Source: an uncultured Gammaproteobacteria bacterium (GTDB lineage: Bacteria > Patescibacteriota > Microgenomatia > UBA10105 > UBA927). From it: a DNA stretch of 64,000 nucleotides. The notes under the pieces are model-generated. The model was not told the DNA's origin, did not search any database, and saw only the letters and a program-made list of their open reading frames with translations. Location of the stretch: assembly GCA_964596355.1 (NCBI GenBank), contig CAZQTD010000001.1:68446-132445 (forward strand), written 5' to 3'. Below are positions 7,073 to 26,631 of the stretch, in pieces (the stretch's first letter is position 1; each line of letters begins with the position of its first letter). The translations under genes were made by a program, and so were the position numbers.

Positions 7073-8797
7073 ATGTACTTCTCGGATCTTGCACGGTATT
7101 TCAAAAAACTTGAAGATACTCCGTCGCGAAACGCGATGACGGAGATTCTTGCAGACCTTTTTCGTCATGTGACAGGCGATGAGATTAGGAAAATCTGCTA
7201 CCTCCTGCAGGGACGCGTTGTTCCCTTGTATGAAGCGCTTGAGTTTGGCGTTGCGGATAAGTTTATGATTCGCGCGGTTGCGAAGGCATATGAAGTGAAC
7301 GAGAAGCGCGTTGAGCATGAATTGAAAAGAACAGGGGATTTAGGCGTCGTTGCGTTCGTCTGTTACCATGTTTTAAAACATAGTAACAGACGAATGCTGT
7401 CGGTTCAGGATGCCTACGACGCGCTATACGACTTGGCGCACGCTTCTGGCGAAGGTTCACAGGAAAAGAAAATAGAGCTGCTTGCTGATCTGTTAAGATC
7501 AGTTGAGGCGCTCTCGGCCCGCTACCTTGCGAGGATTCCACTTGATAAGCTGCGCCTTGGATTTTCCGATATGACAATGCTGGACGCGTTGTCGTGGATG
7601 GAAAAAGGCGATAAGTCACTGCGGGGAGCGCTTGAAGATGCGTACAACGTGCGGCCGGACATCGGCTACATTGCACAAACCCTCAAAACACATGGCGAAA
7701 ACGGTTTGAGCCATATACATGCGAAAGTCGGTGTACCAATCCTTGCGGCGCTCTGTCAGCGGCTTCCGAGTGCCGATGATATGATCAAAAAAATGGGCAA
7801 GGCAGCAGTTGAGCCTAAATTTGATGGCGTGAGGGTGCAGATCCATTATCAGCAATCAACGGTAAAAACGTTTTCCAGAAACCTTGAAAATACCACGGCG
7901 ATGTTTCCCGAGTTATCAGATATCGGGAGAAGCATTGCCGGCCGTGAAGTGATCCTCGATAGCGAAGCCGTGGGCATTGACCCTGCAACGAACCGTCTAA
8001 TTCCGTTTCAAGAAACGATGACGAGGAAGCGCAAGTATAATATTGAGGGAGCTCGGCGAAGCGTGCCGCTTCGATTTTTTGTCTTTGATATTCTCTACAA
8101 AGACGGCAGAGATTTGCTCCATACGCCGCTTTCCGACCGGCGGCGCATTCTGGAGGCGACGCTTACAAAACGTACCGTCTGCGCAATTTCACCGCAGATT
8201 GTCACAAGCGATCCGGGGACGCTTCGGGAGTATCATGAGGAACAGCTCCGGAGGGGGCTGGAGGGCGTCGTCGTGAAAAAATGGGAAAGCTTCTACGAGC
8301 CGGGCAGGAGGGGGTATTCGTGGGTTAAATTTAAGGAGGAAGAAGGCAAAACCGGAAAACTCAACGATACGATTGATGCGGTTATCATGGGATACTATGC
8401 CGGGGAAGGAAAACGTGCGGGATTTGGCATCGGCATGTTTTTGGCGGGAATCAGAAAAGGCGAGCACTTTGTGACGGTGACCAAGATTGGCACGGGCGTT
8501 TCCGATGAACTGTGGAAGCTTCTGCGCAAGCAGCTTGAAGACATAAAGGTTAAGGGTCAGCCAAAGGAATATGCACAGGTAGCAAAACAGCTTGTTCCTG
8601 ATGTTTGGGTTGCGCCAAAGATCGTCGTTGAGATTGCAGGAGATGATTTGACCCGTTCGCCTTCTCACGGGGCGGGGTTTGCCGTACGCTTTCCGCGGCT
8701 CGTGCGGATCCGCACGGATAAGTCGCCTTCCGAAGCAACAACGGTGCGCGAAATACACGCGATGTATACGCAGCAAAGAGGAGGCGTCACGCCATGA
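7073..8797 (+). CDS. lig: ATP-dependent DNA ligase (archaeal/eukaryotic LigB-type)
   Basis: Adenylation motif I KFDGVRVQIHY, with a DNA-binding N-terminal domain and an OB domain. 574 aa. Confidence 0.9.
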   Translation: MYFSDLARYFKKLEDTPSRNAMTEILADLFRHVTGDEIRKICYLLQGRVVPLYEALEFGVADKFMIRAVAKAYEVNEKRVEHELKRTGDLGVVAFVCYHVLKHSNRRMLSVQDAYDALYDLAHASGEGSQEKKIELLADLLRSVEALSARYLARIPLDKLRLGFSDMTMLDALSWMEKGDKSLRGALEDAYNVRPDIGYIAQTLKTHGENGLSHIHAKVGVPILAALCQRLPSADDMIKKMGKAAVEPKFDGVRVQIHYQQSTVKTFSRNLENTTAMFPELSDIGRSIAGREVILDSEAVGIDPATNRLIPFQETMTRKRKYNIEGARRSVPLRFFVFDILYKDGRDLLHTPLSDRRRILEATLTKRTVCAISPQIVTSDPGTLREYHEEQLRRGLEGVVVKKWESFYEPGRRGYSWVKFKEEEGKTGKLNDTIDAVIMGYYAGEGKRAGFGIGMFLAGIRKGEHFVTVTKIGTGVSDELWKLLRKQLEDIKVKGQPKEYAQVAKQLVPDVWVAPKIVVEIAGDDLTRSPSHGAGFAVRFPRLVRIRTDKSPSEATTVREIHAMYTQQRGGVTP

Positions 8798-15939: not shown

Positions 15940-16596
15940 GTGAAAAAATCCATACCATCGCCACAGATGACCGTTTTCCAATTGTGGGGCTGGATTCTTT
16001 TGGCGTGGGCTCTCTACCGGTATTTTCTGAAGCTTCCGGAATGGGCAGACGAGTTCGTGGCAAAGCCGCTTGTTTTTGTTGCTCCTGTCATCTGGTACGT
16101 TCAAAAAAAGGAGAAACGCGACCTATCCTCTATTGGTCTAACCTTCAAGAATATGGTTTCCAGCATGTACATCGGCTTGGGGTTTGGCATGATTTTTGCA
16201 ATTGAAGGAGTAGTTGCTCACGCGCTCAAATACGGCACGATGGATGTGAATCCCATCGCCGCGTTTCAGAAGTACGGCTTCCTACTCATTTTGATTTCTC
16301 TGGCCACCGCGTTTTCTGAAGAGCTTCTCAATCGGGGATTTATTTTTAACAGACTGTATGAAAAGACGGGGAATCTCATGAAGGCGGCAACGCTGGGCGC
16401 CGTCATGTTTGTGTTTCTTCATATCCCCATTCTCGTGACGCTTAATAAGCTGCAGGGCTTAACGCTGGTCATGTTTTTTGTCACAGATGTGATTTTGGCC
16501 TACGCCAACAGCATGCTGTTTCTCAATACCGGATCTCTCATCGCGCCGATCCTCGTTCACGTTTTCTGGAACATGACCGTGGCGCTGTATTTGTAA
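15940..16596 (+). CDS. CPBP family intramembrane glutamic endopeptidase (CAAX protease/Abi)
   Basis: EELLNRG, FLHIP and HVFWN motifs across TM helices. Confidence 0.8.
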   Translation: MKKSIPSPQMTVFQLWGWILLAWALYRYFLKLPEWADEFVAKPLVFVAPVIWYVQKKEKRDLSSIGLTFKNMVSSMYIGLGFGMIFAIEGVVAHALKYGTMDVNPIAAFQKYGFLLILISLATAFSEELLNRGFIFNRLYEKTGNLMKAATLGAVMFVFLHIPILVTLNKLQGLTLVMFFVTDVILAYANSMLFLNTGSLIAPILVHVFWNMTVALYL

Positions 16597-16653
16597 ACGG
16601 AGCAACAAAAACCCCCGCGAAACACGCGTTTTTAACGGTTGCTACGGGGTTTA

Positions 16654-16821
16654 TCATTTCGCCATTTGCTGGACCGGTTGTTGACACAGGCTCATGACGC
16701 GGACGACTGCGCTCCCCTGACCTAAATAATAGCCGATGATGCCGCCGAAGATGACCATCACCAATAAGACGGTGACGCTCATCATGTCCAGCTTAACCTT
16801 CGTTGTTTTCCCTTTTGCCAT
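16654..16821 (-). CDS. Small single-TM protein (55 aa) with strong RBS
   Basis: AGGAGGTG lies 8 nt upstream of the ATG. Protein MAKGKTTKVKLDMMSVTVLLVMVIFGGIIGYY... Not in the ORF track (<60 aa). Confidence 0.5.
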   Translation of the reverse strand: MAKGKTTKVKLDMMSVTVLLVMVIFGGIIGYYLGQGSAVVRVMSLCQQPVQQMAK

Positions 16822-16913
16822 AGAGTGTCACCTCCTTTCTGGTGCAGACATAGATGATACGGTCTATATCCATACTAACAATACGTAGGCGAGACGGTCA
16901 AGAGTGAAGGCCG

Positions 16914-17534
16914 TTATTGCGGCAGGACTTCGTTGACGGCAGTGAGAAGATCGGTAAACGATGTCAGTTCAAGTTTTTTACCGTTGAGGAAAAACGTCGG
17001 TGTGGCATTGACGCCGAAACGGCTCCCAGCGGCAACATCTGACAGCACCGCGTCTCGGTATGTTCCGGAGGCGAGCTCTTGAGTAAATTTGGCCTCGTCC
17101 AGTCCCAGTTCCTTGGCAAGCGCGGGAAACAACGTATCGTCAATTTTCTCCTGATTGGCAAACAGAAGCGCCGCGTATTCCCAGAATTTCCCTTGGGCGG
17201 CTGCTGCTTCTGCCGCCTCGGCGGCTTTTTGGGCGAAGGGATAGCGGCCCAGCGGGAAGTGGCGGTAAGCAACAAACACCCGATCGTTATATGTACGTAT
17301 GATCTGTTCAACAATAGGTTGAGCGGCTTTACACGCCGGACACTGAAAGTCAGAGAATTCCACAAGATACACCGACGCCTGACGGTTGCCTGTGGTGTGC
17401 GCCGAAGCGGGAACAAGATCATCTCTTGTAAATTGGGGCGCGGGTTTGGTAAACACTACCGCGGCAATGCCGATGATGACAATGGTGGCGGCGACAATAG
17501 CAAGGAGCACTTTTGATTCGTTCGTCAGCTTCAT
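16914..17534 (-). CDS. DsbA-family thiol:disulfide oxidoreductase (membrane-anchored)
   Basis: CPAC active site in a thioredoxin fold, with an N-terminal TM anchor. Confidence 0.8.
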   Translation of the reverse strand: MKLTNESKVLLAIVAATIVIIGIAAVVFTKPAPQFTRDDLVPASAHTTGNRQASVYLVEFSDFQCPACKAAQPIVEQIIRTYNDRVFVAYRHFPLGRYPFAQKAAEAAEAAAAQGKFWEYAALLFANQEKIDDTLFPALAKELGLDEAKFTQELASGTYRDAVLSDVAAGSRFGVNATPTFFLNGKKLELTSFTDLLTAVNEVLPQ

Positions 17535-18026
17535 TCACTCCTCCAGCTGGGTGCGCGGCGGATTACGGGTCAGCATCATGCTTCGTACGGTGAGTACAAA
17601 CAGTACTACCATATTTACTGCCGAAAGAACGCACCATGTACAGACGCCTTTGATAAGAAATACTTCAGTATAGGTAAACCACGCGACGAATCCTACGCCA
17701 AAGACGGTTATCCCCAGCATTGCTTTTAAAAGATTCCTGTTATCGCTCGTTGTGCGAAGAAAAGCCAACGCGGCAAGCGCGCTATAGCCAACGAGCCCGA
17801 TCGCCGGTACCGGAATGCCCATGGGGTAGGAAAGGGGGCTTTTGCGCACGAGCGCGCACCCCTCGCCGGTTAAGCACACGACCTGGGACTGCCGTAAGAA
17901 ACTTTGGAGGACGTAGGCGGCCATTGCGATGCCTACGATTGCAAGGATGAATATCACGCGATTGAGGAGCTTGATTGTGTCCGGTGTTTTGTCTTCGAGC
18001 ATAAATGTCTTTGCACAATACATCAC
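17535..18026 (-). CDS. Vitamin K epoxide reductase (VKOR) family protein
   Basis: Loop cysteines CLTGEGC and the active-site CTWC in TM4, four TM helices; adjacent to and co-oriented with dsbA. Confidence 0.8.
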   Translation of the reverse strand: MMYCAKTFMLEDKTPDTIKLLNRVIFILAIVGIAMAAYVLQSFLRQSQVVCLTGEGCALVRKSPLSYPMGIPVPAIGLVGYSALAALAFLRTTSDNRNLLKAMLGITVFGVGFVAWFTYTEVFLIKGVCTWCVLSAVNMVVLFVLTVRSMMLTRNPPRTQLEE

Positions 18027-18096
18027 CTTGGGATGATTTTCAATATGTGAGTTGGTCTGCGCTGTGACTGTATGGTATAGTACAAATCAGCGAGGT

Positions 18097-18756
18097 ATGA
18101 TATCCAATCCCAAAAAGATCGTCGAGGAATTTTTTGCTCACTACTCGTTCGTTCTCTACAAAAAAGGCGAAACTATTATTCGCGCAGAAGACCAGCCGCC
18201 GGGCGTGTTTTACCTGAAGAAGGGCTTCGTGCGCATGTCTTTGCTTTCTGAAAAGGGTGAATTTTTGATACTTCACATCTTTAAGCCCGGATCGTTTTTT
18301 CCCATGACGTGGGTGGTCAACAACACGCCAAACCGATACTATTTTGAAGCCCTCACGGTGGCAGAACTTTACCGCGCGCCCAAGCAAGATGTCCTTGCGT
18401 TTCTTTCGCGGCATCCGGAAGTACTTTTTGACGTCGGCGGAAGAATTTTAGCAGGAGTCAGCGGGATGCTTGCCCGTTTGGAACAGCTGGTACTGGAGAA
18501 TGCGTATGCCAAAACACTGCTCCTTCTTCTTTATTACGCCAGACAATTTGGAACCAAAACACACGGCAGTGTCACTTTAACTGTACCTTTGACGCACCGC
18601 GAGGTCGCGGCGTGGATCGGAACCACGCGGGAAACGGCTAGTCTGCAGATTGAGGCGCTCAAGCACAAGAGGGTCATCTCGTATAAAGGACGTCAGCTTG
18701 TGATCAACGACGTTGCCAAACTTGAAGAAGAGCTTGGCAACGGGTCTATCCATTGA
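18097..18756 (+). CDS. Crp/Fnr family transcriptional regulator
   Basis: cNMP-binding beta-roll plus a C-terminal HTH (REVAAWIGTTRETASLQ). ATG at 18097 with GAGGT upstream. Confidence 0.75.
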   Translation: MISNPKKIVEEFFAHYSFVLYKKGETIIRAEDQPPGVFYLKKGFVRMSLLSEKGEFLILHIFKPGSFFPMTWVVNNTPNRYYFEALTVAELYRAPKQDVLAFLSRHPEVLFDVGGRILAGVSGMLARLEQLVLENAYAKTLLLLLYYARQFGTKTHGSVTLTVPLTHREVAAWIGTTRETASLQIEALKHKRVISYKGRQLVINDVAKLEEELGNGSIH

Positions 18757-18820
18757 CTGTTCCTGCCTCCTTTATTTTTGTTATGTACATTACAAAATAC
18801 ATATGGTAGTGTAATAGTAT

Positions 18821-19309
18821 ATGAACAAAATCCTTCCTGTTTTTGTACTGGTTGTTGTGGGTTTGGGTCTCGGGTGGTATGCCTTGAAAGGGCAAACACG
18901 CGTTCCCGCTACGAGGAGTGAATCGATGGTGGAAGAGGCGGCGACTGGCCCTTCGGGCATGATGGAGGAAACCGACGAAGCCATGATAAAACAGGGCGAA
19001 ACCAAAGAGTTTACGCTGGATTCCTTTGAGTTTGGGTATGACCAGAAGACGCTGACAGTTGCCGCGGGCGACACGGTAACCATTACGCTCACAAATAGCG
19101 GCACAATGGTGCATGACTGGGTGGTCGATGAATTTAACGCGCGGACGAAACGAATTAAAAACGGCGAAACCGATTCAGTGACGTTTGTCGCAGACAAAGC
19201 AGGAACTTACGAATTTTACTGCAGCGTGGGCAACCACCGCGCACAGGGCATGGTGGGGAAGCTCATCGTGGAGCAGGCAATGAAGGATGAGTCGGGCAAC
19301 AAGGACTAG
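18821..19309 (+). CDS. Secreted/membrane-anchored cupredoxin (plastocyanin/azurin-like blue copper protein)
   Basis: N-terminal TM/signal, then type-1 Cu ligands H (MVHDW), C-x2-H-x4-M (YCSVGNHRAQGM). Confidence 0.75.
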   Translation: MNKILPVFVLVVVGLGLGWYALKGQTRVPATRSESMVEEAATGPSGMMEETDEAMIKQGETKEFTLDSFEFGYDQKTLTVAAGDTVTITLTNSGTMVHDWVVDEFNARTKRIKNGETDSVTFVADKAGTYEFYCSVGNHRAQGMVGKLIVEQAMKDESGNKD

Positions 19310-19629
19310 AAGGAATAGAATATTATAGGAAAGTTACCGATTCTATCGTTCTTTACAACAATACCTTCTTTTGAAAGAAAAGCAATTTTCTTTTTGATTT
19401 CCCGACCTCTGGTCCTCCCCATGAATCCGCCGATCGTGCCGTCGCTGGCTACGACCCGATGGCAAGGGGTATGCGGCCCGTCAGGATTTCGTTTGAGGAT
19501 CTGGCCGATACGCCGGTATGCTTTCACCCCAAGCGCGTCACCCAGCGCTTTGTACGTCGTCACGCGGCCCCTGGGGACGGTTTTTAGAAGCGCGTACACG
19601 CGGTCGGCGAGCGTTGGAGTAAACGTCAT
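19306..19629 (-). CDS. ogt: Methylated-DNA--protein-cysteine methyltransferase (C-terminal catalytic domain only)
   Basis: Active-site PCHRVV and DNA-binding HTH YKALGDALG. Lies immediately downstream of copA on the same strand. Confidence 0.75.
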   Translation of the reverse strand: MTFTPTLADRVYALLKTVPRGRVTTYKALGDALGVKAYRRIGQILKRNPDGPHTPCHRVVASDGTIGGFMGRTRGREIKKKIAFLSKEGIVVKNDRIGNFPIIFYSF

Positions 19630-19638
19630 AGCATTCCA

Positions 19639-21918
19639 CTATAGTCGAATGCGCTTAAGCCGTAAAGAGTTGGTGACGACAGAAATGCTGCTTGCGGCCA
19701 TGGCGAAAGCGGCGAGCGCGGGATTCAAAAGCCAGCCGGTTAACGGGTAAAGGATGCCCATGGCCACAGGGATAAGGATGACATTGTAGCCAAACGCCCA
19801 CAAGAGATTTTGCTTGATAATAGACAGCGTTGCACGCGACAACCTGATAGTGGATACAACATTCTGCAGATTATTTGTAAGAAGCGTTACACCCGCAGAT
19901 TCAATGGCAACGTCGGTGCCAGTTCCCATCGCAATGCCCACGTCTGCGGCAGCAAGCGCCGGCGCGTCGTTAATGCCGTCGCCGATAAAGGCAACGACCG
20001 AGCGACGAGAGGGAAGAGGGTAAATCGTTCGATTAGAGGGAGAAGGAGGACTCGTTTTTAGTTGTGCAATTATTTTTGCTTTGTCTTTCGGCAGGACGCC
20101 TGCAAGGACGTTGTCAATGCCTGCCTGCTTGGCAACGGCGCGCGCCGTCCGTTCGTTATCTCCGGTAATCATCCAGACGGCGATTCCCAGACGCTTCAGG
20201 TTTGTTATCGTATCCCTCGCTTCTTTTTTCAGCGTGTCGGCGGCGGCAATTACCCCGATGGGTCTTTGTGCGTCAGCAAGAACCATCACGGTTTTTCCTT
20301 GTTTTTCAAGATCGCCAAACGGTTTGCTGGGTTTGCCAAAAACGTACTTCTTGCCGTCGATGGTTCCAGATACGCCGCGGCCCGGAATTGCTTGAAATCC
20401 TTCGACGGTTTTTAGACCAAGCTGTTTGTGTCGCGCGGCATTCACGACGGCTTCTGCGAGAGAATGCTCACTGCCTTGTTCGAGGGAGGCGGCGAGCGAC
20501 AAAATGGATCGAGGGGATAGGGAAGATGCTTGCGACAGGGGGATAACATCCGTTACCGTGGGTTTTCCTACGGTAAGTGTGCCGGTTTTATCAAAGACCG
20601 CTACGGTTAGCCTATGTGCAATTTCTAGACTCTCCGCGTTTTTAATGAGGATCCCGTGCGCGGCGCCTTTTCCAATGCCGACAATAATTGCTGTGGGGGT
20701 CGCAAGCCCCAGCGCGCACGGGCAGGCGATAATAAGGACGGCAACGAAGTTGGTGAATGCAGGTGGAAACGATCGTAGATCATACCAGACCACAAAGGTG
20801 GCAACAGCAAGCATAAGCACGATGGGGGTAAAGTAGCCGGACACAACATCAGCCAGCCGCTGGATGGAAGCTCGGGAACCTTGAGCCTCGGACACCATCC
20901 GCACAATCTGCGCAAGCAGGGTGTCGCTGCCAACGTTGGTAGCGCGAAACAGGAAGGTACCGGTTTTATTTATCGTTGCTCCGATGACCCTGTCGCCCTT
21001 TTTCTTATCAACGGGAATTGACTCGCCCGTAACCATGGATTCGTCTATTGAGCTGGTTCCCGATATGATTACCCCATCCACAGGTATCTTTTCCCCCGGA
21101 CGAACCCGCATGATGTTTCCGACCTGAATTTGATCGACGGGAACGTCTTTCTCATCGAATTCAATGCCACTGGTAAATTGTTGCACTGTTAAATTGTTGC
21201 ACTGTTTGTCTTGTAAAACGCGCGCGGTTTTTGCCTGCAGATGCAGGAGTTTTTTGATTGCGTCACTGGTGTGGGATGTAGCTTTAGCTTCAAGGTAGCG
21301 GCCCAAAAGAATGAGCGTGATGATAATCGCCGCGGTATCGTAATACATGACATGTGGTAGTCCCCATGAAGCGAGAGACTGTGCAAAAAACGTTGTCAAC
21401 ACGGAAAAGCCGTACGCCGCCGTCGTGCCTATGGCAATGAGCGTATCCATGCTGGCAGTGCGATTGTTGAGTCCTGACCACGCAGCTTGATAAAACCTCC
21501 AGCCTGCCCAGAATTGCACCGGCGTAGCTAACGCAAGGAGAAATAAGGGGGCGTTAAGAATTTTGGGGACAAACGGAAACCATTCGGGGAAGCTTCCCAA
21601 CAATACCAGCGCGCTTACGATGCCGGAAAGAAGGACTTTGGTTTTCAAATCAGCCAATTCTTTTTTCTGCGCTTCCTGCTTAAGTTCATCAGGGGATTTT
21701 CCGGCGTCTCCAGTTGTGATCGCGTTATAGCCAAGATTCTTAATTGCGTCGCCTAAGGCTTGAAGGCTGGTTAACGATGGGTTAAACGAAACAGACGCCT
21801 GTTGGCTGCCGTAGTTGACCGAAGCGTCCACGACCCCCGGAGTTTTTTTAAGCTTCCTTTCAATGAGCGTTGCGCAGCTTGCGCAGTGCATGCCGACGAT
21901 GGGGAAGGAGGCGTTCAT
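19639..21918 (-). CDS. copA: Copper-translocating P1B-type ATPase
   Basis: N-terminal [14 protein letters not shown] in TM6, [15 protein letters not shown], plus a low-complexity insertion [18 protein letters not shown]. Confidence 0.95.
21172..21201. repeat. 15-bp in-frame tandem duplication within copA ([10 protein letters not shown])
   Basis: cagtgcaacaattta is directly repeated. Confidence 0.6.
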
Positions 21919-22037
21919 ATCACACGTTTTTGCCCAAGAAGAACCAGTAGATTGCGGCTATAGAGAGTATCCCTATGATGGTAACGATACATTTATCCAT
22001 GTTCTATTGCTAAATTGTTAATAAAACTTCAATAATT

Positions 22038-22316
22038 TTATTGTTTTTCCATTACTTTCATAACTTCTTCGATAACCTCTTTTTCGTTGCCCTTGCGGAT
22101 TTCCTCGGCGACACAGGTTTCCAGATGGTTTTTAAGGATCGCCTCATTGATGGCTTTCAATGATGCTTGAACCGCCATGGACTGATGGATGATGTCAATG
22201 CAATAACTGTCAGTTTCTACCATCGCAAGGACTCGGCTAAGGTGTCCTTGGGCGATTTTGAGCCTATGGATGAGTGAATGCTTGATTGAATGATCTCTGG
22301 GAACTCCTTTTGGCAC
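22038..22316 (-). CDS. csoR: CsoR/RcnR family metal-sensing transcriptional repressor
   Basis: DUF156 fold with conserved H (IIHQSM) and C (ETCVAE). GTG start with AGGAG upstream. Confidence 0.85.
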   Translation of the reverse strand: MPKGVPRDHSIKHSLIHRLKIAQGHLSRVLAMVETDSYCIDIIHQSMAVQASLKAINEAILKNHLETCVAEEIRKGNEKEVIEEVMKVMEKQ

Positions 22317-22327
22317 AAGCTTTCTCC

Positions 22328-22358
22328 TTGACTTCTATCCCCCCATAGGGGATATAAT
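22328..22358 (+). promoter_or_regulatory. Divergent promoter region with palindromic CsoR-type operator TATCCCC(CC)ATAGGGGATA between -35 TTGACT and -10 TATAAT
   Basis: The GC-rich inverted repeat sits in the spacer of a sigma70-like promoter facing the permease/copZ genes. The csoR transcript would start just upstream of it. Confidence 0.5.
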
Positions 22359-22402
22359 CATACTACGGAGTTTGACAACAGTTGTCAAGCGGCCGTTTCG
22401 TT

Positions 22403-23434
22403 ATGCAGTTCGTTTGGTTGGCGCTTTTGACGGGTCTGACAACTGGTGGGTTATCGTGTCTGGCTGTGCAGGGAGGACTTTTGGCTGCGTCGGTTACAAA
22501 TAATCCGGGCGATCCGGAAGACAAGGGAGTCAAGGGAGAGGGCAGATGGATCAGAGTCGGCATGTTCCTCGCGGCGAAGCTGGTGGTCTATACCGTCTTG
22601 GGGTTTTTCCTTGGGCTTGCAGGGTCAACCCTTGTTCTTTCGCCAAAAACATTGGGATTGGTTCAGATCGCCGTCGGACTTTTTATGCTTGCGACTGCCG
22701 CGCGGATTATTGAGCTTCACGGGGTATTTCGTTACGTCGTCATCCAGCCGCCGCGATGGGCATACCGATTGCTGAAAACGAAAAGCCGCGACGCATCGTG
22801 GTTTGCGCCTGCTGCTTTAGGCGCTCTCACCATCCTCATTCCCTGCGGCGTCACGCAAACGACGATGGCTGTGGCGGTAGCGAGCGCCAGTCCATTGATG
22901 GGAGCCGCAATTATGTTTGCGTTTGTGTTGGGCACGAGCCCGATTTTTTTTGCGTTGGGTGCGGCAGTCGTCGAGCTTCTGAAGCGGAAGGCATTTTCCT
23001 ACGCCGCCGCGGCGGTCGTACTGGTCTTTGGCCTTATGTCCGTGAATGGGGGACTGGGCCTAATGGGATCGTTCTATACGCTGCAGAATTTGTATGCCAT
23101 TGCGATGACGCCGGCGGATACGCTTGTCCAAGGAGGGGGAGCTATTGCCGAAGTAAACAGCCAAGGAATGCAGGAGGTAATTATCAATGTGACAGATAGA
23201 GGATACGCGGCATCAGCCACAACGCTCAAAGCGGGTGTCCCTGTGCGGCTCATCCTTCGAACTAATAATACGAGAGGATGCTCGCGGGCATTCACGCTAC
23301 CGGAATTCGGCATATCCAAAGTGCTGCCCCAGTCGGGGAGTGAGACAATCGAATTTACGCCGACACGGGTTGGGAGGCTTGCGTATTCCTGCAGCATGGG
23401 GATGTACACGGGGCAATTTACTGTCATAAATTGA
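22403..23434 (+). CDS. Polytopic membrane protein (TauE/SafE- or CcdA-like permease, uncertain) fused to C-terminal cupredoxin-like Cu(I)-binding domain
   Basis: About 8 TM helices. C-terminal beta-sandwich pattern VIINVTDRGY...GCSRAFTLPEFGI...YSCSMGMYTGQFTV carries Cys/Met ligands. Start is uncertain: ATG at 22403, track TTG at 22382. Confidence 0.6.
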   Translation: MQFVWLALLTGLTTGGLSCLAVQGGLLAASVTNNPGDPEDKGVKGEGRWIRVGMFLAAKLVVYTVLGFFLGLAGSTLVLSPKTLGLVQIAVGLFMLATAARIIELHGVFRYVVIQPPRWAYRLLKTKSRDASWFAPAALGALTILIPCGVTQTTMAVAVASASPLMGAAIMFAFVLGTSPIFFALGAAVVELLKRKAFSYAAAAVVLVFGLMSVNGGLGLMGSFYTLQNLYAIAMTPADTLVQGGGAIAEVNSQGMQEVIINVTDRGYAASATTLKAGVPVRLILRTNNTRGCSRAFTLPEFGISKVLPQSGSETIEFTPTRVGRLAYSCSMGMYTGQFTVIN

Positions 23435-23474
23435 ATAAACGAAATCAAATAAGCAAAGAAGCGAATGGAAACGT

Positions 23475-23693
23475 ATGACAAAGAAAACATATAAAGTGGA
23501 CGGCATGCATTGCAATAGTTGCGCGACCATGATCGAATTGGATCTCGAAGACGCAGGGATCACAGCAAGTTGCAGCTACGCCAAGCAGACGTTAGCGGTG
23601 GAGTTTGACGAGAAAAAAATAACGGAAGATGTCATTCGCGCCGTTGTTTCAGATGCCGGTTACACGCTTCACGAACAGGCAAGCACAGCGTGA
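23475..23693 (+). CDS. copZ: Heavy-metal-associated copper chaperone
   Basis: GMHCNSC metal-binding motif; 72 aa. Confidence 0.85.
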   Translation: MTKKTYKVDGMHCNSCATMIELDLEDAGITASCSYAKQTLAVEFDEKKITEDVIRAVVSDAGYTLHEQASTA

Positions 23694-23835
23694 GACATCT
23701 CACGCATTTGTCATGGTCATATCAGGCATTGGCGACAGATATGAACCGACTATCCGGAGATGAGCTTGATATACACGGCGCTTGCTGCGGTCCGCAGGCC
23801 TCATCCCAAGCATCAATAACAGCAATCACGGCGTC

Positions 23836-25227
23836 TCATTTTCGCTTAAAGACTGCCTGATTGTCCGTCAAAAACACCGCTTCGTACAAGGGATCGCGCA
23901 GAAGTTTTGCCCGCAGAAACGTTAACCGTTCATAGTCTTGCGGAAAGAAATTATTGGGGTTTTGGCCGGTTCTAAGGTCAAAAACGACGTAGTCCGGCAT
24001 GTACCCTGTGTAATCTCTTCGGAAAAGCCAGACAGTCTGGTGGCTGAAGCGGGCAGCAAGATTGTTTTGCGTCATGACGGTGGCTCTCGCCGGCACGCGG
24101 CCAACGACATCATCGAGAAATCTAAAATTCTTGGTATGGCGGTAAAACGCCGGATTGTAGGAAAGAGCAAGCGGGCCCCGCAGGCGGTAGTGCAGGAATG
24201 CGGAAACAAAAAGAAGTGTTGCGCCGATGAGCCACGCGTGGCGAACACCCCGTTTCCACCACTTCAGAATCCAGCGCAGGGAATAGAGGCTTGAGACGGC
24301 AAGAAGTGGGGCAAGCTGTGCGCTGTAATGAAGCCCCAGTCCCCATCGAATGGTTGACTGCGGCAGAAAAAATCGCGACGCGAGATCCTGAAGGATGGCG
24401 GGGTAAAGCGGCGGAAACCCAAGCGGCAGAAAAAGAAAGCTTCCAAATGAAACGAAGAGGGTGTTTCGTTTGATCGGGTCATCGACAAAGCCGGCAAGGA
24501 AAGAGGCGGGATTTATTGGAATCGTTGGAACATACTGCGACGCTCTGCCGGCAAAATAAGGGAGGAGGAGCGTATTGGCGATAAAACCCCACAATAGCGA
24601 AAGCGCTATTGTGGGGAGTGCAATTGCACGCCATGATTTCTGCGTCAACCACAGAAACAGTCCGATGCTTGCTCCCAGAAGAAACATGTTTTCCTTGATT
24701 CCCAGACAGAGGATAAGGAAAATAAAAAATCGCCGCTTCCAGCCTTTGGCAATCGCATAAAAAAGTACAATCAAAGGGAGCGTGAGGATTGTCGTTTCAT
24801 GGAAGTCGGAAATAATGGCATTCTGAATGCCTATAAACAACGCATACGCAATCGCGTTAGCGAACGCAAGGAAACGGTTGTTGAGCAGTTGAATGCCCAG
24901 ACGGTAGAGAACAGGTACGCTGGAAGCGACAATCACGGCTTGAGCAATGAGGATAATTTCGCTTCGGCTCGTTATCCAATACAACGGAGAAAGAAGGAAG
25001 ATCGTGGGACTGATGTGGTCGGCGAATATGACCTTGCCGCCCACAGCCAAGTGGTCAATAACAGGCGCCGCAAAGCGCGAAACACGCCATATGGCTCCAT
25101 CAAAAATGCCAAAGTCATAGTAAAAAACATCGTACTGCCAGAAGCGGTGGAGAGAAACCAAGGAGCCGGCGAATCCGTAGAGCGCGGTAAAAAGAATCGC
25201 GAGAAGATCAAAGACGTTTTTGCGCAT
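23836..25227 (-). CDS. Large polytopic membrane protein with C-terminal soluble domain (DUF2079-like/GT-C-like, uncertain)
   Basis: More than 10 TM helices, then a C-terminal globular domain. The track start at 25608 would overlap trxA, so the ATG at 25227 (MRKNVFDLL) is preferred. Confidence 0.6.
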   Translation of the reverse strand: MRKNVFDLLAILFTALYGFAGSLVSLHRFWQYDVFYYDFGIFDGAIWRVSRFAAPVIDHLAVGGKVIFADHISPTIFLLSPLYWITSRSEIILIAQAVIVASSVPVLYRLGIQLLNNRFLAFANAIAYALFIGIQNAIISDFHETTILTLPLIVLFYAIAKGWKRRFFIFLILCLGIKENMFLLGASIGLFLWLTQKSWRAIALPTIALSLLWGFIANTLLLPYFAGRASQYVPTIPINPASFLAGFVDDPIKRNTLFVSFGSFLFLPLGFPPLYPAILQDLASRFFLPQSTIRWGLGLHYSAQLAPLLAVSSLYSLRWILKWWKRGVRHAWLIGATLLFVSAFLHYRLRGPLALSYNPAFYRHTKNFRFLDDVVGRVPARATVMTQNNLAARFSHQTVWLFRRDYTGYMPDYVVFDLRTGQNPNNFFPQDYERLTFLRAKLLRDPLYEAVFLTDNQAVFKRK

Positions 25228-25324
25228 GATGCAATTGTAATGAAACGTCATGGTATTATGAAGAGAGGACTTGTAGAATTTATCGTTGAATGATAGAGTG
25301 ATAATTCTTAAAAGGAGGGTACTT

Positions 25325-25648
25325 ATGGCAGGCATTACGATAACCGATGCAAATTTTGATAGCGAAGTGTTGACATCGGATAAACCGGTGCTCGTGGACT
25401 TTTGGGCTGCGTGGTGCGGGCCGTGCCAGATGCAGGGGCCGATTATTGAAGAGGTCGCAAAAAGCATCGGGTCCAAAGCGAAGGTTGGCAAACTCAATGT
25501 TGATGAAAATCCGGTCGTAGCCCAGAAATACGGCATCATGAGCATTCCGACCTTGATGATTTTTAAGGGAGGCACGGTGGTCAAACAGCTTATCGGTGTG
25601 CAGAGCAAAGAAACCTTGCTCCGTGAGTTAAATACATTGCTTAGTTAA
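25325..25648 (+). CDS. trxA: Thioredoxin
   Basis: WAAWCGPCQM active site. SD AAAGGAGGG upstream. Confidence 0.9.
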   Translation: MAGITITDANFDSEVLTSDKPVLVDFWAAWCGPCQMQGPIIEEVAKSIGSKAKVGKLNVDENPVVAQKYGIMSIPTLMIFKGGTVVKQLIGVQSKETLLRELNTLLS

Positions 25649-25668
25649 CTCCCGATCACAAAAGCTCA

Positions 25669-26631
25669 ATGAGCACGCAACAGTACGATATTATCATTCT
25701 CGGGTCGGGGCCTGCCGGGCTTACAGCAGCGCTCTATGCGTCGCGAGCGCTTCTGGCAACTGTCGTTATCACCGGTGCGGAACCCGGGGGGCAGTTGACA
25801 ACGACCACGGAAGTTGAAAATTACCCAGGATTTCCCAACGGAATCATGGGGCCGCAATTAATGGCGGACATGAAAACACAGGTTGAGAAGTTTGGGACGC
25901 ACATAAAACAGCATCGAGTATCGAGCATCGAGTATCGAAACAACACAAGAACATTTGCCGCAAAGGGTGACGGCGCTGAATTTGAGGGACGTTCGGTCAT
26001 TATCGCAATCGGCGCGTCTGCACAGTACTTAGGATTGCCCAGCGAAGATCGACTGAAAGGCAAGGGCGTTTCTGCGTGCGCCACCTGCGACGGCTTTTTC
26101 TTTCGGGGGAAAGACGTTGTGGTTATAGGAGGCGGCGATACGGCGATGGAAGAGGCGATATTTCTTACCGCGTTTGCCACGAAGGTCACGATTATTCACA
26201 GGAGGGACGAGTTCCGCGCAAGCCCGATTATGCGCAAGCGCGCGCAAGAGAATCCAAAGATTGCATTTCGCACCAATAGCGTGGTAGAAGAAATACTTGG
26301 AGACACCGCGGTATCGGGTGTTCGGCTTAAGGACACAAAAACCGGCACAACATCAGAGGTTAAAACGCAGGGCGTGTTTTTGGCTATCGGGCATAAACCC
26401 AATACGGAATTTCTCAAGGGGTTCGTCGCGCTTGATGAACGGGGATATATTCAGCTTATTCGGCCCGCGAGCGCTCGTGAAGCACAAACACGAACCAGCG
26501 TGCCGGGCGTTTTTGCCGCAGGGGACTGCGTTGACCCCCGATACCGTCAGGCCGTGGTGGCCGCCGGCATGGGCTGCATGGCGGCAATGGATGCGCAGAA
26601 ATGGCTTGAAGACAAAGGGATGAATAGCTGA
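25669..26631 (+). CDS. trxB: Thioredoxin-disulfide reductase
   Basis: FAD GSGPAG, redox CATC, NADPH GGGDTAMEEA. Confidence 0.9.
   Translation: MSTQQYDIIILGSGPAGLTAALYASRALLATVVITGAEPGGQLTTTTEVENYPGFPNGIMGPQLMADMKTQVEKFGTHIKQHRVSSIEYRNNTRTFAAKGDGAEFEGRSVIIAIGASAQYLGLPSEDRLKGKGVSACATCDGFFFRGKDVVVIGGGDTAMEEAIFLTAFATKVTIIHRRDEFRASPIMRKRAQENPKIAFRTNSVVEEILGDTAVSGVRLKDTKTGTTSEVKTQGVFLAIGHKPNTEFLKGFVALDERGYIQLIRPASAREAQTRTSVPGVFAAGDCVDPRYRQAVVAAGMGCMAAMDAQKWLEDKGMNS

Follow-up and report, generated by a model that had tools for sequence, protein, structure and literature searches.

Sites bound by type-2 CsoR repressors are G-tract pseudo-palindromes with AT-rich dyads on their flanks (PMC3902906), and DsbD_2/HMA membrane proteins (COG2836) have been inferred to be members of the CsoR regulon in gut Firmicutes (PMC4938975). 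The cysteines of CupA reduce Cu(II) in vitro (PMC7558416), and ScsB/ScsC are an earlier case of copper defence that involves a DsbD-type protein (PMC10907172). The window analyzed here (the whole stretch of DNA, 64,000 nucleotides) holds an ordinary, probably CsoR-regulated copper-detoxification and efflux locus, from a Gottesmanbacteria-like genome of the Patescibacteria (CPR), in which a chaperone gene is preceded by a gene for a membrane protein fused to a CupA-like domain (Table 1).

Table 1. Positions of genes and candidate regulatory elements in the window.
Feature	Position	Strand	Description	Basis
Type-1 cupredoxin	18821..19309	+	Ligands H98, C134, H139, M144; Met/Glu-rich linker	PF13473, PF00127
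ogt	19306..19629	-	Short MGMT-family alkyltransferase, 107 aa, catalytic Cys56	PF01035, E = 5.6e-22
ogt promoter candidate	19638..19666	-	TTTACG, 17 nt, TATAGT, 8 nt, ATG	Scan, 9/12 matches
copA	19639..21918	-	Cu(I)-exporting P1B-1 ATPase, 759 aa, one N-terminal HMA	TIGR01511, E = 1.6e-179
Micro-ORF	21920..22000	-	26 codons, single TM, inside the csoR-copA gap	
csoR	22038..22316	-	Cu(I)-sensing CsoR-family repressor, 92 aa, GTG start	PF02583, E = 2.9e-22
Rightward promoter candidate	22328..22358	+	TTGACT (22328-22333), 19 nt, TATAAT (22353-22358)	Read from sequence
CsoR operator candidate	22336..22354	.	TATCCCCCCATAGGGGATA; TATCCCC-N5-GGGGATA, G/C-tract pseudo-palindrome	Position and conservation
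csoR promoter	22360..22388	-	TTGACA (22388..22383), 17 nt, TAGTAT (22365..22360)	Promoter scan
Perfect palindrome	22372..22388	.	TTGACAAC-A-GTTGTCAA; putative 5'UTR of permease mRNA	
DsbD_2::CupA-like fusion	22403..23434	+	343 aa	PF13386, E = 6.8e-25; PF13473, E = 9.8e-11
copZ	23475..23693	+	Cytoplasmic HMA copper chaperone, M-H-C13-N-S-C16, 72 aa	PF00403, E = 4.5e-10
Hairpin	23688..23705	+	Weak terminator candidate of the rightward operon; overlaps copZ stop	Terminator scan

Gene content and the leftward transcript

The genes named in a sequence-only reading of this DNA were borne out, in their ORF coordinates and, by profile matches, in their domain identities, and the proposed CsoR/CopA/CopZ copper locus, with a CsoR-type candidate operator in the divergent promoter region, was supported at the sequence level. 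The best PDB match of CsoR was the M. tuberculosis protein (2hh7, E = 1.3e-16), and residues Y38, C39, H64 and C68 corresponded in the alignment to Y35, C36, H61 and C65 of the latter. As had been proposed, the GTG start of csoR was accompanied by a ribosome-binding site (AAGGAG at 22329..22324, 7 nt 5' of the GTG). CopA carried the P1B-1 signature motifs (CASC12, TGE297, CPC399, DKTGT443, GDGIND646, YN711 and MAASS740).

The csoR, copA and ogt genes had been described as contiguous, with gaps of 8-10 bp; this held for copA and ogt (9 bp), but csoR and copA were found to be 119 bp apart. The stop of the micro-ORF inside this gap lies 1 nt ahead of the copA ATG, and its product showed no match to any Pfam or NCBIfam family and was homologous to the N-termini of proteins of 114-120 aa, composed of a TM segment and Cupredoxin_1, encoded at the same position in relatives. 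Full TM plus Cupredoxin_1 proteins were present in L001, L002, L003, L021, L023, L029, L035 and L051, an ORF of 88 aa in L048, and TM-only forms of 25-39 aa in L022, L016/L019, L017, L018 and L004. As judged by homology, the micro-ORF is the conserved membrane anchor of a CupA-like chaperone, minus the soluble domain. Both the micro-ORF and the relationship to CupA were absent from the sequence-only reading. The leftward transcript would encode CsoR, the 26-aa single-TM micropeptide and the Cu(I) pump CopA, and transcription from copA would probably read through into ogt; the scan detected no terminator-like site between these two genes.

The permease-cupredoxin fusion and its chaperone partner

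The fusion protein consists of a 6-TM DsbD_2 core with two invariant membrane Cys and a C-terminal domain carrying C293...C330-x-M332-x-M334, and residues C19, C148, C293, C330, M332 and M334 were invariant in 131 sequences. Two observations confirmed its ATG at 22403, namely the 100%-identical P0001 and the conserved M1; no recognisable ribosome-binding site was found for the gene. The proposal that the C-terminus is a cupredoxin with Cys/Met ligands agreed with the predicted structure: the AF2 model of this domain (mean pLDDT 82) folded as a cupredoxin, with the metal-binding domain of S. pneumoniae CopA (4f2f) and CupA (4f2e) as top Foldseek matches (target TM-scores of 0.88 and 0.86, respectively). 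CupA was also the best sequence match (2mry/4f2e, E = 2e-10). A blue-copper site was rejected for this C-terminus, where the ligands form a Cu(I) chaperone site of the CupA type (C...CxMxM).

The fusion had been regarded as atypical, a view that did not survive comparison with databases: PF13386 and PF13473 occurred together in all 120 best database matches. Plasmids from members of the Actinomycetota, Deinococcota and Chloroflexota, as well as a Firmicutes (Acetoanaerobium) record of the same collection, carried nearly full-length copies (covering 93-95% of the query), and most of these copies bear the annotation 'sulfite exporter TauE/SafE'. The fusion is a very common, unstudied protein. 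All 19 evaluable relatives sharing at least 40% identity carried an HMA gene downstream of the fusion; in 26 of 38 loci, copA was located at most 5 kb away. In those phyla outside the CPR, the fusion was usually found beside genes for an HMA chaperone and for a P-type ATPase, and the same trio of P-type ATPase, fusion and HMA was present on a Tsukamurella plasmid. The CopZ of the window matched the CopZ family NF033795 with E = 9.2e-10, under the cut-off, and the hairpin at the copZ stop combined a 7-bp stem, 5 of whose pairs were GC, with a T-poor tail.

Loops 1, 3 and 5 of the fusion carried a mean of 8.9 K+R, and loops 2 and 4 carried 0. The CupA-like domain is predicted to lie outside the membrane by the positive-inside rule alone, loops 2 and 4 being only 3-4 residues long; S. 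pneumoniae CupA, in contrast, is cytoplasmic.

The fusion might instead serve as an electron carrier. Its DsbD_2 core would then move no copper but act as a CcdA-like conduit for thiol-disulfide electrons, using cytoplasmic thioredoxin to keep both cysteines of the attached extracytoplasmic CupA-like domain reduced, as ScsB serves ScsC, and leaving this domain free to capture Cu(I) or to reduce Cu(II) extracellularly. A weak co-match to PF02683 (DsbD_TM) in many homologues, one invariant Cys each in TM1 and TM4, as in CcdA/DsbD, and the predicted outer position of the Cys-bearing domain are consistent with such a role, as are the DsbA/VKOR oxidising machinery and the Trx/TrxB genes syntenic with the locus; the CupA and ScsB/ScsC precedents cited above also count in its favour. 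We consider it possible but unlikely, since the near-universal partner of the fusion is a cytoplasmic HMA chaperone and no thioredoxin, and members of the family also occur in mercury and multi-metal islands. Many members of the LysE superfamily are metal exporters, and the TM motifs of the fusion (SC-LAVQGG and PCGVTQ) appear unlike those typical of CcdA. Transport of Cu(I) by the fusion, although preferred here, is a putative function, because the superfamily of its TM core also includes pure electron carriers (CcdA/DsbD).

The ogt and cupredoxin genes

The ogt product had been read as a catalytic-domain-only methyltransferase with a PCHRVV motif, which was confirmed, PF01035 being its sole domain. 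It aligned with S. solfataricus OGT (4zyg), PCHRV included, residues Y26, R39, N48, C56, H57, R58 and E88 were found, and PF01035-only proteins of about 104-110 aa were the norm among its homologues. As for the proposed coupling of ogt to the copper transcript, the adjacency is real and read-through plausible, but an arrangement directly 3' of copA was found in one other lineage only (L017), and ogt appears to have its own -10. The promoter candidate lies within the 3' end of copA and has a leaderless-type geometry; TATAAT was found 6-7 nt from the ATG in orthologues from L001, L051, L052, L053 and L055, and TAGTAT 8 nt from the ATG in L054. The position and orientation of ogt varied among relatives. 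Judging from these contexts, ogt is a resident neighbour with its own predicted promoter and no conserved part of the copper system; its co-orientation between copA and VKOR-DsbA within this clade (L017, L051 and L055) leaves a small probability of a functional link.

Membership of ogt in the copper regulon would make sense if Cu(I) poisoned the nucleophilic suicide cysteine and co-induction with CopA replaced the inactivated protein. The short copA-ogt gap without a terminator after copA fits this idea, as does the translational coupling of copA-ogt-VKOR-DsbA in L017 (3-nt gap, overlapping junctions). Moreover, all close ogt orthologues examined (at least 64% identity) had a copper or disulfide-bond gene within a few kb (in four contexts this was copA, cupredoxin or csoR; in the fifth, L052, it was VKOR-DsbA alone); however, these contexts all belong to a single clade, and their agreement may therefore reflect shared synteny. 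The ogt copies of L001/L015/L020, L051, L053 and L055 are placed head-to-head with the cupredoxin gene, not directly 3' of copA, and have their own TATAAT, to which the TATAGT of the window is equivalent. In addition, L016/L019 carry copA-VKOR-DsbA without ogt, a Collierbacteria orthologue lies in housekeeping surroundings between dnaE and gatB, and ogt was absent from all but 2 of 38 distinct fusion loci, which together make a place in the regulon improbable.

The product of the remaining neighbour, described earlier as a secreted blue-copper protein, is indeed a type-1 cupredoxin, which aligned, with its ligands conserved, to H. denitrificans nitrite reductase (2dv6, E = 1e-16) in the cupredoxin domain at the N-terminus of that enzyme. 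As read from the sequence, however, the hydrophobic N-terminus of the window's cupredoxin looks uncleaved, and anchoring in the membrane is therefore more likely than release. A conserved promoter and dyad were found upstream of its gene, and no CsoR-type site was detected there in the window-wide scan (at most 3 mismatches). The cupredoxin gene is a neighbour that probably has its own promoter, outside the control of the CsoR operator, and the adjacent CRP/FNR-family regulator probably controls it.

The divergent control region and copper handling

The csoR and fusion genes diverge from a region of 86 bp. Its csoR promoter was the top promoter-like site in 18000-24200 (10/12 matches), and relatives keep TTGACA-17-TAnnAT there; the predicted transcription start falls inside the candidate operator. 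The proposed GC palindrome of the CsoR-operator type, TATCCCCCCATAGGGGATA, was the sole match in the window at up to 3 mismatches (0.02 expected by chance), and an ATCCCC-N3-5-GGGGGAT element occurred 0-5 nt past the csoR-promoter -10 in at least 11 related lineages (L018, L019, L020, L017, L022, L055, L035, L048, L004, L003 and L002). It shares the architecture of the type-2 sites described above, with ATC/GAT where characterised CsoR sites have TAC/GTA as the anchor dyad. Operator-type palindromes (7-bp arms, 5-bp spacer) were not statistically unusual in the window (9 vs. about 3.9 simulated), and the case for the operator thus depends on position and conservation rather than symmetry. Since it is unique in the window and recurs at the same position upstream of csoR in these lineages, 22336-22354 is a credible CsoR operator, a single site that may serve both divergent promoters.

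The palindrome had also been placed between TTGACT and TATAAT boxes of a rightward promoter. The boxes, identical in L001, do flank it, and the operator occupies the spacer and overlaps the -10, but the 19-bp spacer is non-optimal and the promoter scan, which allowed spacers of 16-18 nt, made no call. The operator would overlap both the leftward csoR transcription start and the rightward spacer and -10, and we therefore propose that apo-CsoR represses both promoters; Cu(I) bound at C39/H64/C68 would, from knowledge of the family, release the operator. We infer each step of this regulation.

Such derepression by copper bears on whether the fusion and its HMA partner could import thiophilic metals (Cu(I), Hg(II), Ag(I)) much as MerT/MerP do, delivering them to cytoplasmic CopZ/CopA, or to MerA in other hosts. 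On the Tsukamurella plasmid, the fusion/HMA pair has merA and a multicopper oxidase as direct neighbours, and on a Deinococcus plasmid it is close to merB and a MerR regulator; TM cysteines with an outer metal-binding domain resemble the MerT/MerP architecture. Import from a copper-derepressed promoter, however, would aggravate copper stress, the constant partner in CPR loci is the exporter CopA, and the HMA protein has no signal peptide, as read from its sequence, and is therefore not MerP-like; we find an importer quite improbable.

A second palindrome, TTGACAAC-A-GTTGTCAA, had been reported at 22373-22389 over the csoR -35; it does contain the -35, but lies one position lower (Table 1). Its right half is the -35 itself and its left half is lineage-specific, occurring in none of the relatives, so that conservation, limited to the -35 half, did not uphold it as a regulatory element. 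As an RNA hairpin it had dG = -14.2 kcal/mol (z = -2.2), and the window held 18 perfect palindromes (8-bp arms, spacers 0-5) vs. about 6.5 in simulations. That a second regulator, such as the CRP/FNR-family protein encoded 3.6 kb away, uses its perfect 8-1-8 symmetry across the -35 for dual control of the divergent promoters is extremely unlikely, given the 18 comparable palindromes, 11 related promoters that retain TTGACA alone with a different opposite arm in each, a half-site spacing unlike that of FNR, CRP and NtcA boxes, and the better CRP-type dyad upstream of the cupredoxin gene.

The whole model, a CsoR-controlled divergent copper locus of proposed regulation with a thiol route for Cu(I) and separate promoters for ogt and the cupredoxin gene, is considered likely. 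The rightward transcript would encode the DsbD_2::CupA-like fusion and CopZ. The two invariant membrane Cys of the LysE/CcdA-superfamily core would take over Cu(I) from cytoplasmic CopZ, and the core would deliver it to the CupA-type Cys/Met site, placed outside by the positive-inside rule; both the direction and the substrate of the transfer from CopZ are what we infer. The fusion/CopZ pair would thereby constitute a putative second, thiol-based route for Cu(I) handling.

Copper regulon and its candidate operator

The genes of the copper locus and its flanks are collected in the table below, and several of the encoded proteins had their best matches in Candidatus Gottesmanbacteria and other Patescibacteria. 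A compositional island was considered and rejected, as GC content is flat (0.48-0.54) across 12-30 kb, and an Rfam scan of positions 16500-26000 matched no RNA family. Most statements of the sequence-only reading about this locus hold, and four were corrected; the 8-10-bp gaps that it described, for instance, apply to copA-ogt (9 bp) but not to csoR-copA (119 bp).

Features of the copper locus, in window coordinates
Feature	Position	Strand	Basis or remark
DsbA-like	16914-17534	-	ORF listing and family scans
VKOR	17535-18026	-	ORF listing and family scans
CRP/FNR-family regulator (crp)	18052-18756	+	ORF listing and family scans
Cupredoxin dyad	18778-18795		Overlaps the -35 of the cupredoxin promoter
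Cupredoxin promoter -10	18807-18812
Cupredoxin, 162 aa	18821-19309	+	PF13473/PF00127
ogt, MGMT-family protein, 107 aa, PCHRVV	19306-19629	-	PF01035 only
ogt promoter-like site	19638-19666	-	Within the last codons of copA
CopA	19639-21918	-	ORF listing and family scans
26-codon single-TM micro-ORF	21920-22000	-	csoR-copA gap; TGA 1 nt before copA ATG
CsoR, GTG start	22038-22316	-	ORF listing and family scans
Palindrome 1 (CsoR operator candidate)	22336-22354
Palindrome 2	22372-22388		Overlaps the csoR -35
Fusion, DsbD_2 + Cupredoxin_1, 343 aa	22403-23434	+	ORF listing and family scans
HMA chaperone (copZ)	23475-23693	+	ORF listing and family scans
DUF2079 membrane protein	23836-25608	-	ORF listing and family scans

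CsoR matched PF02583 (E = 2.9e-22; 79 bits vs. a 22.8-bit cut-off) and aligned with M. tuberculosis CsoR (2hh7, E = 1.3e-16), its Y38, C39, H64 and C68 corresponding to Y35, C36, H61 and C65 of the latter. Judged from this alignment, these residues are the predicted Cu(I) fingerprint (x-C-H-C ligands plus a second-shell Tyr) of the Cu(I)-sensing branch of CsoR/RcnR. CopA scored 598 bits against TIGR01511 (cut-off, 397 bits) and contains the motifs CPC399, YN711, MAASS740, DKTGT443 and CASC12, i.e. the set of a predicted P1B-1 Cu(I)-ATPase, with CPC in TM4 (CopA numbering), YN in TM5, MxxSS in TM6, DKTGT, and an N-terminal CxxC HMA domain.

The proposal of a CsoR-type operator in the divergent promoter region was supported: palindrome 1 (TATCCCCCCATAGGGGATA) has no other occurrence in the window within 3 mismatches, overlaps the csoR promoter, and keeps its position in at least 11 relatives. 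The strongest evidence for this candidate operator came from phylogenetic footprinting, in which 11 related, non-identical csoR upstream regions repeated the order TTGACA, 17-18 nt, TAnnAT, with (T)ATCCCC-N3-5-GGGGGAT(A) 0-5 nt after the -10; in the closest relatives, AAAGTCAAGGAG and then the start codon follow 3' of the element. The csoR promoter was the top promoter-like site of the region in a promoter scan (10/12 matches), and since the element lies just after its -10, palindrome 1 would cover the predicted csoR transcription start. On the opposite strand, palindrome 1 fills the spacer and -10 of TTGACT-19-TATAAT, an arrangement identical in L001, the closest genome-derived relative (L numbers denote related or comparison loci). 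The TTGACT...TATAAT promoter of the sequence-only reading stands insofar as its hexamers flank the palindrome, but they are 19 nt apart and were not called by the promoter scan. The architecture matches that of a type-2 CsoR site, with a G-tract pseudo-palindrome between AT-rich dyads; for such sites, and for the TAC/GTA dyad that anchors S. lividans CsoR, see PMC3902906. The 5'-TAC-X9-GTA-3' anchor dyad was not found in palindrome 1, where the candidate site reads ATC-X11-GAT and the anchor bases differ. In L001 (~7790-8000, plus strand) operator and promoter are identical to those of the window, but an extra small membrane ORF of ~65 aa separates them from the fusion gene, and the intergenic region spans 414 bp vs. 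86 bp in the window.

Neither palindrome was reported by an inverted-repeat tool with arms of at least 12 nt, and both were confirmed by reading the sequence directly and with a custom script. Palindrome 2 exists, but one base away from where it had first been placed. The window contains 18 perfect palindromes (8-bp arms, spacers of 0-5), where simulations gave ~6.5; perfect palindromes of this size are thus common, and symmetry alone proves nothing. A role of palindrome 2 as operator found no backing, as only the arm holding the -35 hexamer is conserved and the other is different in every relative. The hairpin that it would form in the RNA, within the putative 5'UTR of the permease message, does not stand out (z = -2.2), and palindrome 2 is taken here for a -35 box whose mirror image is fortuitous.

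The locus shares with the cso/copZA systems (M. tuberculosis cso, B. subtilis copZA, S. lividans csoR/copZA) a four-helix-bundle CsoR with a C-H-C Cu(I) triad, predicted autoregulation with csoR first in an operon with a P1B ATPase, a candidate G-tract pseudo-palindromic operator overlapping the promoter, and an HMA chaperone in the regulon. Unlike these systems, one operator would serve two divergent promoters, the regulon adds the DsbD_2::CupA-like fusion and the micro-ORF, and the operator dyad is ATC...GAT instead of TAC-X9-GTA. The CsoR regulon of this CPR genome is a standard one and carries the familiar CsoR/CopA/CopZ logic over to the CPR; the locus as such adds little, and its value lies in three by-products, namely the fusion family, the range of CupA, and the micropeptide.

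Neighbouring genes: ogt, VKOR-DsbA and the cupredoxin

The catalytic network of Ogt is complete (Y26, R39, N48, C56, H57, R58 and E88, comprising the active site PCHR(V), Tyr, Arg-finger, Asn-hinge and Glu), and suicide transferase activity is predicted for the protein. The N-terminal Methyltransf_1N domain, which would be expected of classical Ogt/Ada-C, was not found in its 107 aa, where PF01035 stands alone; this single-domain form (~105 aa) is usual for its homologues ('MGMT family protein') and typical of those from CPR. The PF01035 helix-turn-helix domain and a similar length are shared with the ATLs Atl1 (3gva, 116 aa) and vpAtl (2kif, 108 aa), but unlike these the protein of the window retains the catalytic Cys (PCHRV).

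Coupling of this repair enzyme to the copper-efflux transcript, as had been suggested, is not supported by conservation, and the arrangement amounts to clade-specific synteny with an independent (predicted) promoter. Gene order is copA-ogt-VKOR-DsbA, tightly coupled, in L017, ogt-VKOR-DsbA in L052, and copA-VKOR-DsbA, with ogt absent, in L016/L019; ogt is head-to-head with the cupredoxin gene in L001/L015/L020, L051, L053 and L055, on the strand opposite to a copA-fusion-HMA operon in the contig of database protein P0143, and between dnaE and gatB in L054 (Collierbacteria). All genes of the clade's backbone, csoR > (cupA) > copA > ogt > VKOR > DsbA, point the same way, with crp and the cupredoxin gene inserted on the opposite strand. 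In five relatives TATAAT stands 6-7 nt ahead of the ATG of the ogt orthologue, and in a sixth, L054, TAGTAT at 8 nt, while the promoter-like site of the window reads TTTACG-17-TATAGT-8 nt-ATG; this -10 geometry suggests a leaderless ogt transcript, independent of copper. Because there is no terminator-like site after copA, ogt probably receives copA read-through in addition to having its own promoter.

The VKOR-DsbA pair (window 16914-18026, minus strand; L016 3064-4139; L017 2916-3997; L052 3580-4645) follows copA or copA-ogt immediately and on the same strand in several relatives, in L017 with an overlap; the window has crp and the cupredoxin gene between the pair and copA-ogt. This synteny may represent a conserved link of copper efflux and oxidative protein folding in the clade. 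DUF2933 and DUF5676-like small membrane proteins and an ICMT-family methyltransferase are also interspersed in related copper loci (L002 5504-5821, L052 1925-3062).

Residues H98, C134, H139 and M144 of the cupredoxin align with the type-1 site of the Hyphomicrobium NirK N-terminal domain (2dv6, E = 1e-16), and the protein falls far short of the cut-off score of each named NCBIfam equivalog. Its His-Cys-His-Met ligands, cupredoxin fold and N-terminal hydrophobic segment are those of a predicted type-1 (blue) copper protein. Ligands, fold and predicted extracytoplasmic targeting are common to the type-1 cupredoxins (plastocyanin family, Hyphomicrobium NirK N-terminal domain, CopI), from which it differs in a Met/Glu-rich linker and in an organism group that is generally without respiratory chains. 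The gene was rejected as a CsoR target, no CsoR-type site being present upstream. A dyad, TTGT(A/T)-N8-TACAA, overlaps the -35 of its promoter here as well as in L001 (3362-3379) and L055 (5961-5978), and the -10 lies 8 nt before the ATG, a leaderless-type geometry. L001, L051, L053 and L055 share the right half of the dyad and the -10 geometry, and the window, L001/L015/L020 and L055 have the dyad in full. The dyad is similar to an NtcA/CRP-family box, on which the CRP/FNR-family regulator encoded next to it may act; the window, L001, L051 and L055 each have a CRP-family gene alongside or close by. Lacking a CsoR site, and having its own dyad and promoter with a crp gene close by, the cupredoxin is thus a syntenic neighbour, probably under separate control. 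The cupredoxin gene and ogt are convergent, their stop codons overlapping by 4 bp (19306-19309). No terminator-like site was found at this junction on either strand, so that copper-induced transcription reading through from copA-ogt would enter the cupredoxin gene and crp in antisense.

DsbD_2 permease with a CupA-like domain

The fusion of a permease to a cupredoxin-like domain had been taken as atypical, a view contradicted by its 120 best database matches, all of which (120/120) carry PF13386+PF13473; E values ≤ 1e-5 were obtained for 5,602 of 8,000 scored candidates. Homologues with 93-95% query coverage were present in a plasmid collection, in Chlorohelix, Deinococcus, Tsukamurella, Streptomyces, Mycolicibacterium and Acetoanaerobium records, and those annotated were uniformly labelled 'sulfite exporter TauE/SafE family protein'. 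The TauE model (PF01925) did not match the fusion, for which PF13386 and PF13473 alone were detected at E ≤ 0.01, and the label appears to be an annotation carry-over. PF13386 scored 88.6 bits (cut-off, 24.9 bits) over profile positions 2-198 of 199, and the TM region drew no match from any NCBIfam model, including the SO_0444 family Cu/Zn efflux transporter, with the limit relaxed to E ≤ 10. An alternative TTG start (22382) was rejected, as the homologues and P0001, a 100%-identical database protein, begin at ATG 22403. The literature search retrieved no paper pairing PF13386 with copper, and the search for DsbD_2 led to a metagenomic CsoR-regulon paper only.

That the C-terminus is cupredoxin-like with Cys/Met ligands was confirmed by structure prediction, which returned the fold of CupA and the CopA metal-binding domain (MBD). 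In phmmer searches the domain matched S. pneumoniae CupA (E = 2e-10) and the CopA metal-binding domain (E = 1.3e-8), and C293 and C330-S-M332-G-M334 aligned to the S1/S2 ligands of CupA. The AF2 model had a mean pLDDT of 82 (86-95 in the C-terminal domain), and the top Foldseek matches of the domain were 4f2f and 4f2e (target TM-scores 0.88 and 0.86; rmsd 1.5-1.6 Å, 1.5 Å for 4f2f). From sequence and model, the domain is predicted to be CupA-like, not blue copper, the C...CxMxM binuclear-site residues and fold of S. pneumoniae CupA (4f2e) and CopA MBD (4f2f) being conserved. Residues C19 (TM1), C148 (TM4), C293, C330, M332 and M334 are invariant across 131 sequences, down to 30% identity. Loops 1, 3 and 5 carry a mean of 8.9 Lys+Arg and loops 2 and 4 none, so that by the positive-inside rule an N-out/C-out topology is predicted, with the CupA-like domain outside the cell. 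The single N-terminal TM anchor and cytoplasmic soluble domain of CupA were not found in the fusion; unlike in S. pneumoniae CupA, the domain lies C-terminal to six TM helices, and its predicted outward-facing position is without a described counterpart.

Gene partners were counted in 38 distinct fusion loci. A copA gene occurs within 5 kb in 26 of these 38 and csoR in 13, and an HMA gene lies 3' of the fusion gene in all evaluable relatives with at least 40% identity (19/19). DsbD_2/HMA membrane proteins (COG2836) have been inferred to be members of CsoR regulons in gut Firmicutes (PMC4938975). The Tsukamurella plasmid NZ_LR134469.1 (L056, 2360-9421) encodes, in this order, a P-type ATPase, fusion, HMA, merA and a multicopper oxidase, and the Deinococcus plasmid NZ_CP097150.1 (L057, 4950-9257) fusion and HMA near merB and MerR; given this company in cultivated Actinomycetota and Deinococcota, Hg(II) or other thiophilic metals may be handled besides Cu(I).

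In the preferred reading, CopZ would feed the fusion, opening a thiol-based route of Cu(I) export or hand-off. The main rival, drawn by analogy with ScsB/ScsC (PMC10907172), is that the membrane core would be a CcdA-like reductant conduit for the fusion's own outer Cys site. CcdA/DsbD and ScsB/ScsC share with the fusion a membrane core of one Pfam family group (PF13386, weak PF02683), one essential-looking Cys each in TM1 and TM4, and a tie to copper stress and Dsb genes, but the fusion is without their thioredoxin-fold partner domain, the domain fused being a predicted copper-binding cupredoxin and the partner gene a copper chaperone. Thioredoxin genes just beyond the fusion-copZ operon fit a thioredoxin-fed CcdA-like core, a fit and not a proof. 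They were found in the window (25286-26631, plus strand), L015 (8922-9245), L016 (11748-13081), L017 (8311-9648) and L055 (3536-4802), accompanied by thioredoxin-reductase genes except in L015, and the L017 pair directly follows the operon. Uptake in the manner of MerT/MerP, which likewise combine a thiophilic-metal membrane protein bearing membrane cysteines with a small HMA protein and resemble the fusion also in that its homologues occur beside merA and merB, is argued against by the copper-efflux context; the fold of the fusion is unrelated, its TM number different, and its HMA partner cytoplasmic.

CupA-like chaperones and the anchor micropeptide

A full-length CupA-like gene (114-120 aa) was found in L001/L015/L020, L002/L027, L003, L021, L023, L029, L035, L036 and L051, between csoR and copA except in L036, where it is elsewhere in the locus; L048 has an 88-aa ORF. 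The encoded proteins combine an N-terminal TM helix with a Cupredoxin_1 domain bearing C...CGMNM, and that of L001 matches CupA (E = 1.4e-17). Repressor, TM-anchored cupredoxin chaperone and copA thus follow one another in L001, L002, L003 and others in the same order as in S. pneumoniae copY-cupA-copA. The window differs from S. pneumoniae in its repressor (CsoR vs. CopY), in the metal-binding domain of CopA (HMA-type vs. cupredoxin-type), and in a free CupA cut down to a 26-aa anchor.

Among the retrieved loci, anchor-only ORFs were counted in the window and L022 (26 aa each), L016/L019 (25 aa, GTG start), L017 (28 aa), L018 (36 aa) and L004 (39 aa), the latter two with a His-rich tail. Their consensus is MDKxIVTIxGIxLIxxIYWFFFGKK, and the ORF abuts or overlaps the next gene in every case; those of the window and L022 share 64% nucleotide identity and are both intact. 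No family of Pfam or NCBIfam matched the micropeptide. On comparison with the relatives, the micro-ORF is the anchor helix of a CupA-like chaperone whose soluble domain is gone in the window. Its retention as an intact anchor-only ORF in six lineages suggests that the helix by itself is functional, perhaps in association with CopA as a subunit.

Tentatively, and with more doubt than confidence, the fusion and its obligatory HMA partner might be viewed as an uncharacterised multi-phylum soft-metal module, in which a CcdA-like two-Cys core would be wired to an outer CupA-type binuclear Cu(I) site and act either as a thiol-mediated Cu(I) exporter of a new class or as an extracellular copper trap that reduces itself, together with a conserved 25-39-aa single-TM peptide, coupled translationally to copA, which would be a dedicated P-type-ATPase micropeptide subunit derived from the CupA anchor.

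Regarding the fusion family, a very abundant group of proteins labelled 'sulfite exporter TauE/SafE', for which no experimental work was found, consists of a DsbD_2 core and a CupA-type Cu(I) domain; in several phyla its genes are set in loci for resistance to copper and at times mercury, and its cultivable hosts (Streptomyces, Deinococcus, Tsukamurella) make this reading directly testable. CupA has been described in a review as restricted to a few streptococcal species (PMC7558416); CupA-like chaperones are standard in these CPR copper operons, far from streptococci, and the CupA anchor, kept as a free conserved micropeptide before copA, is a testable candidate for an accessory subunit of a P-type ATPase.
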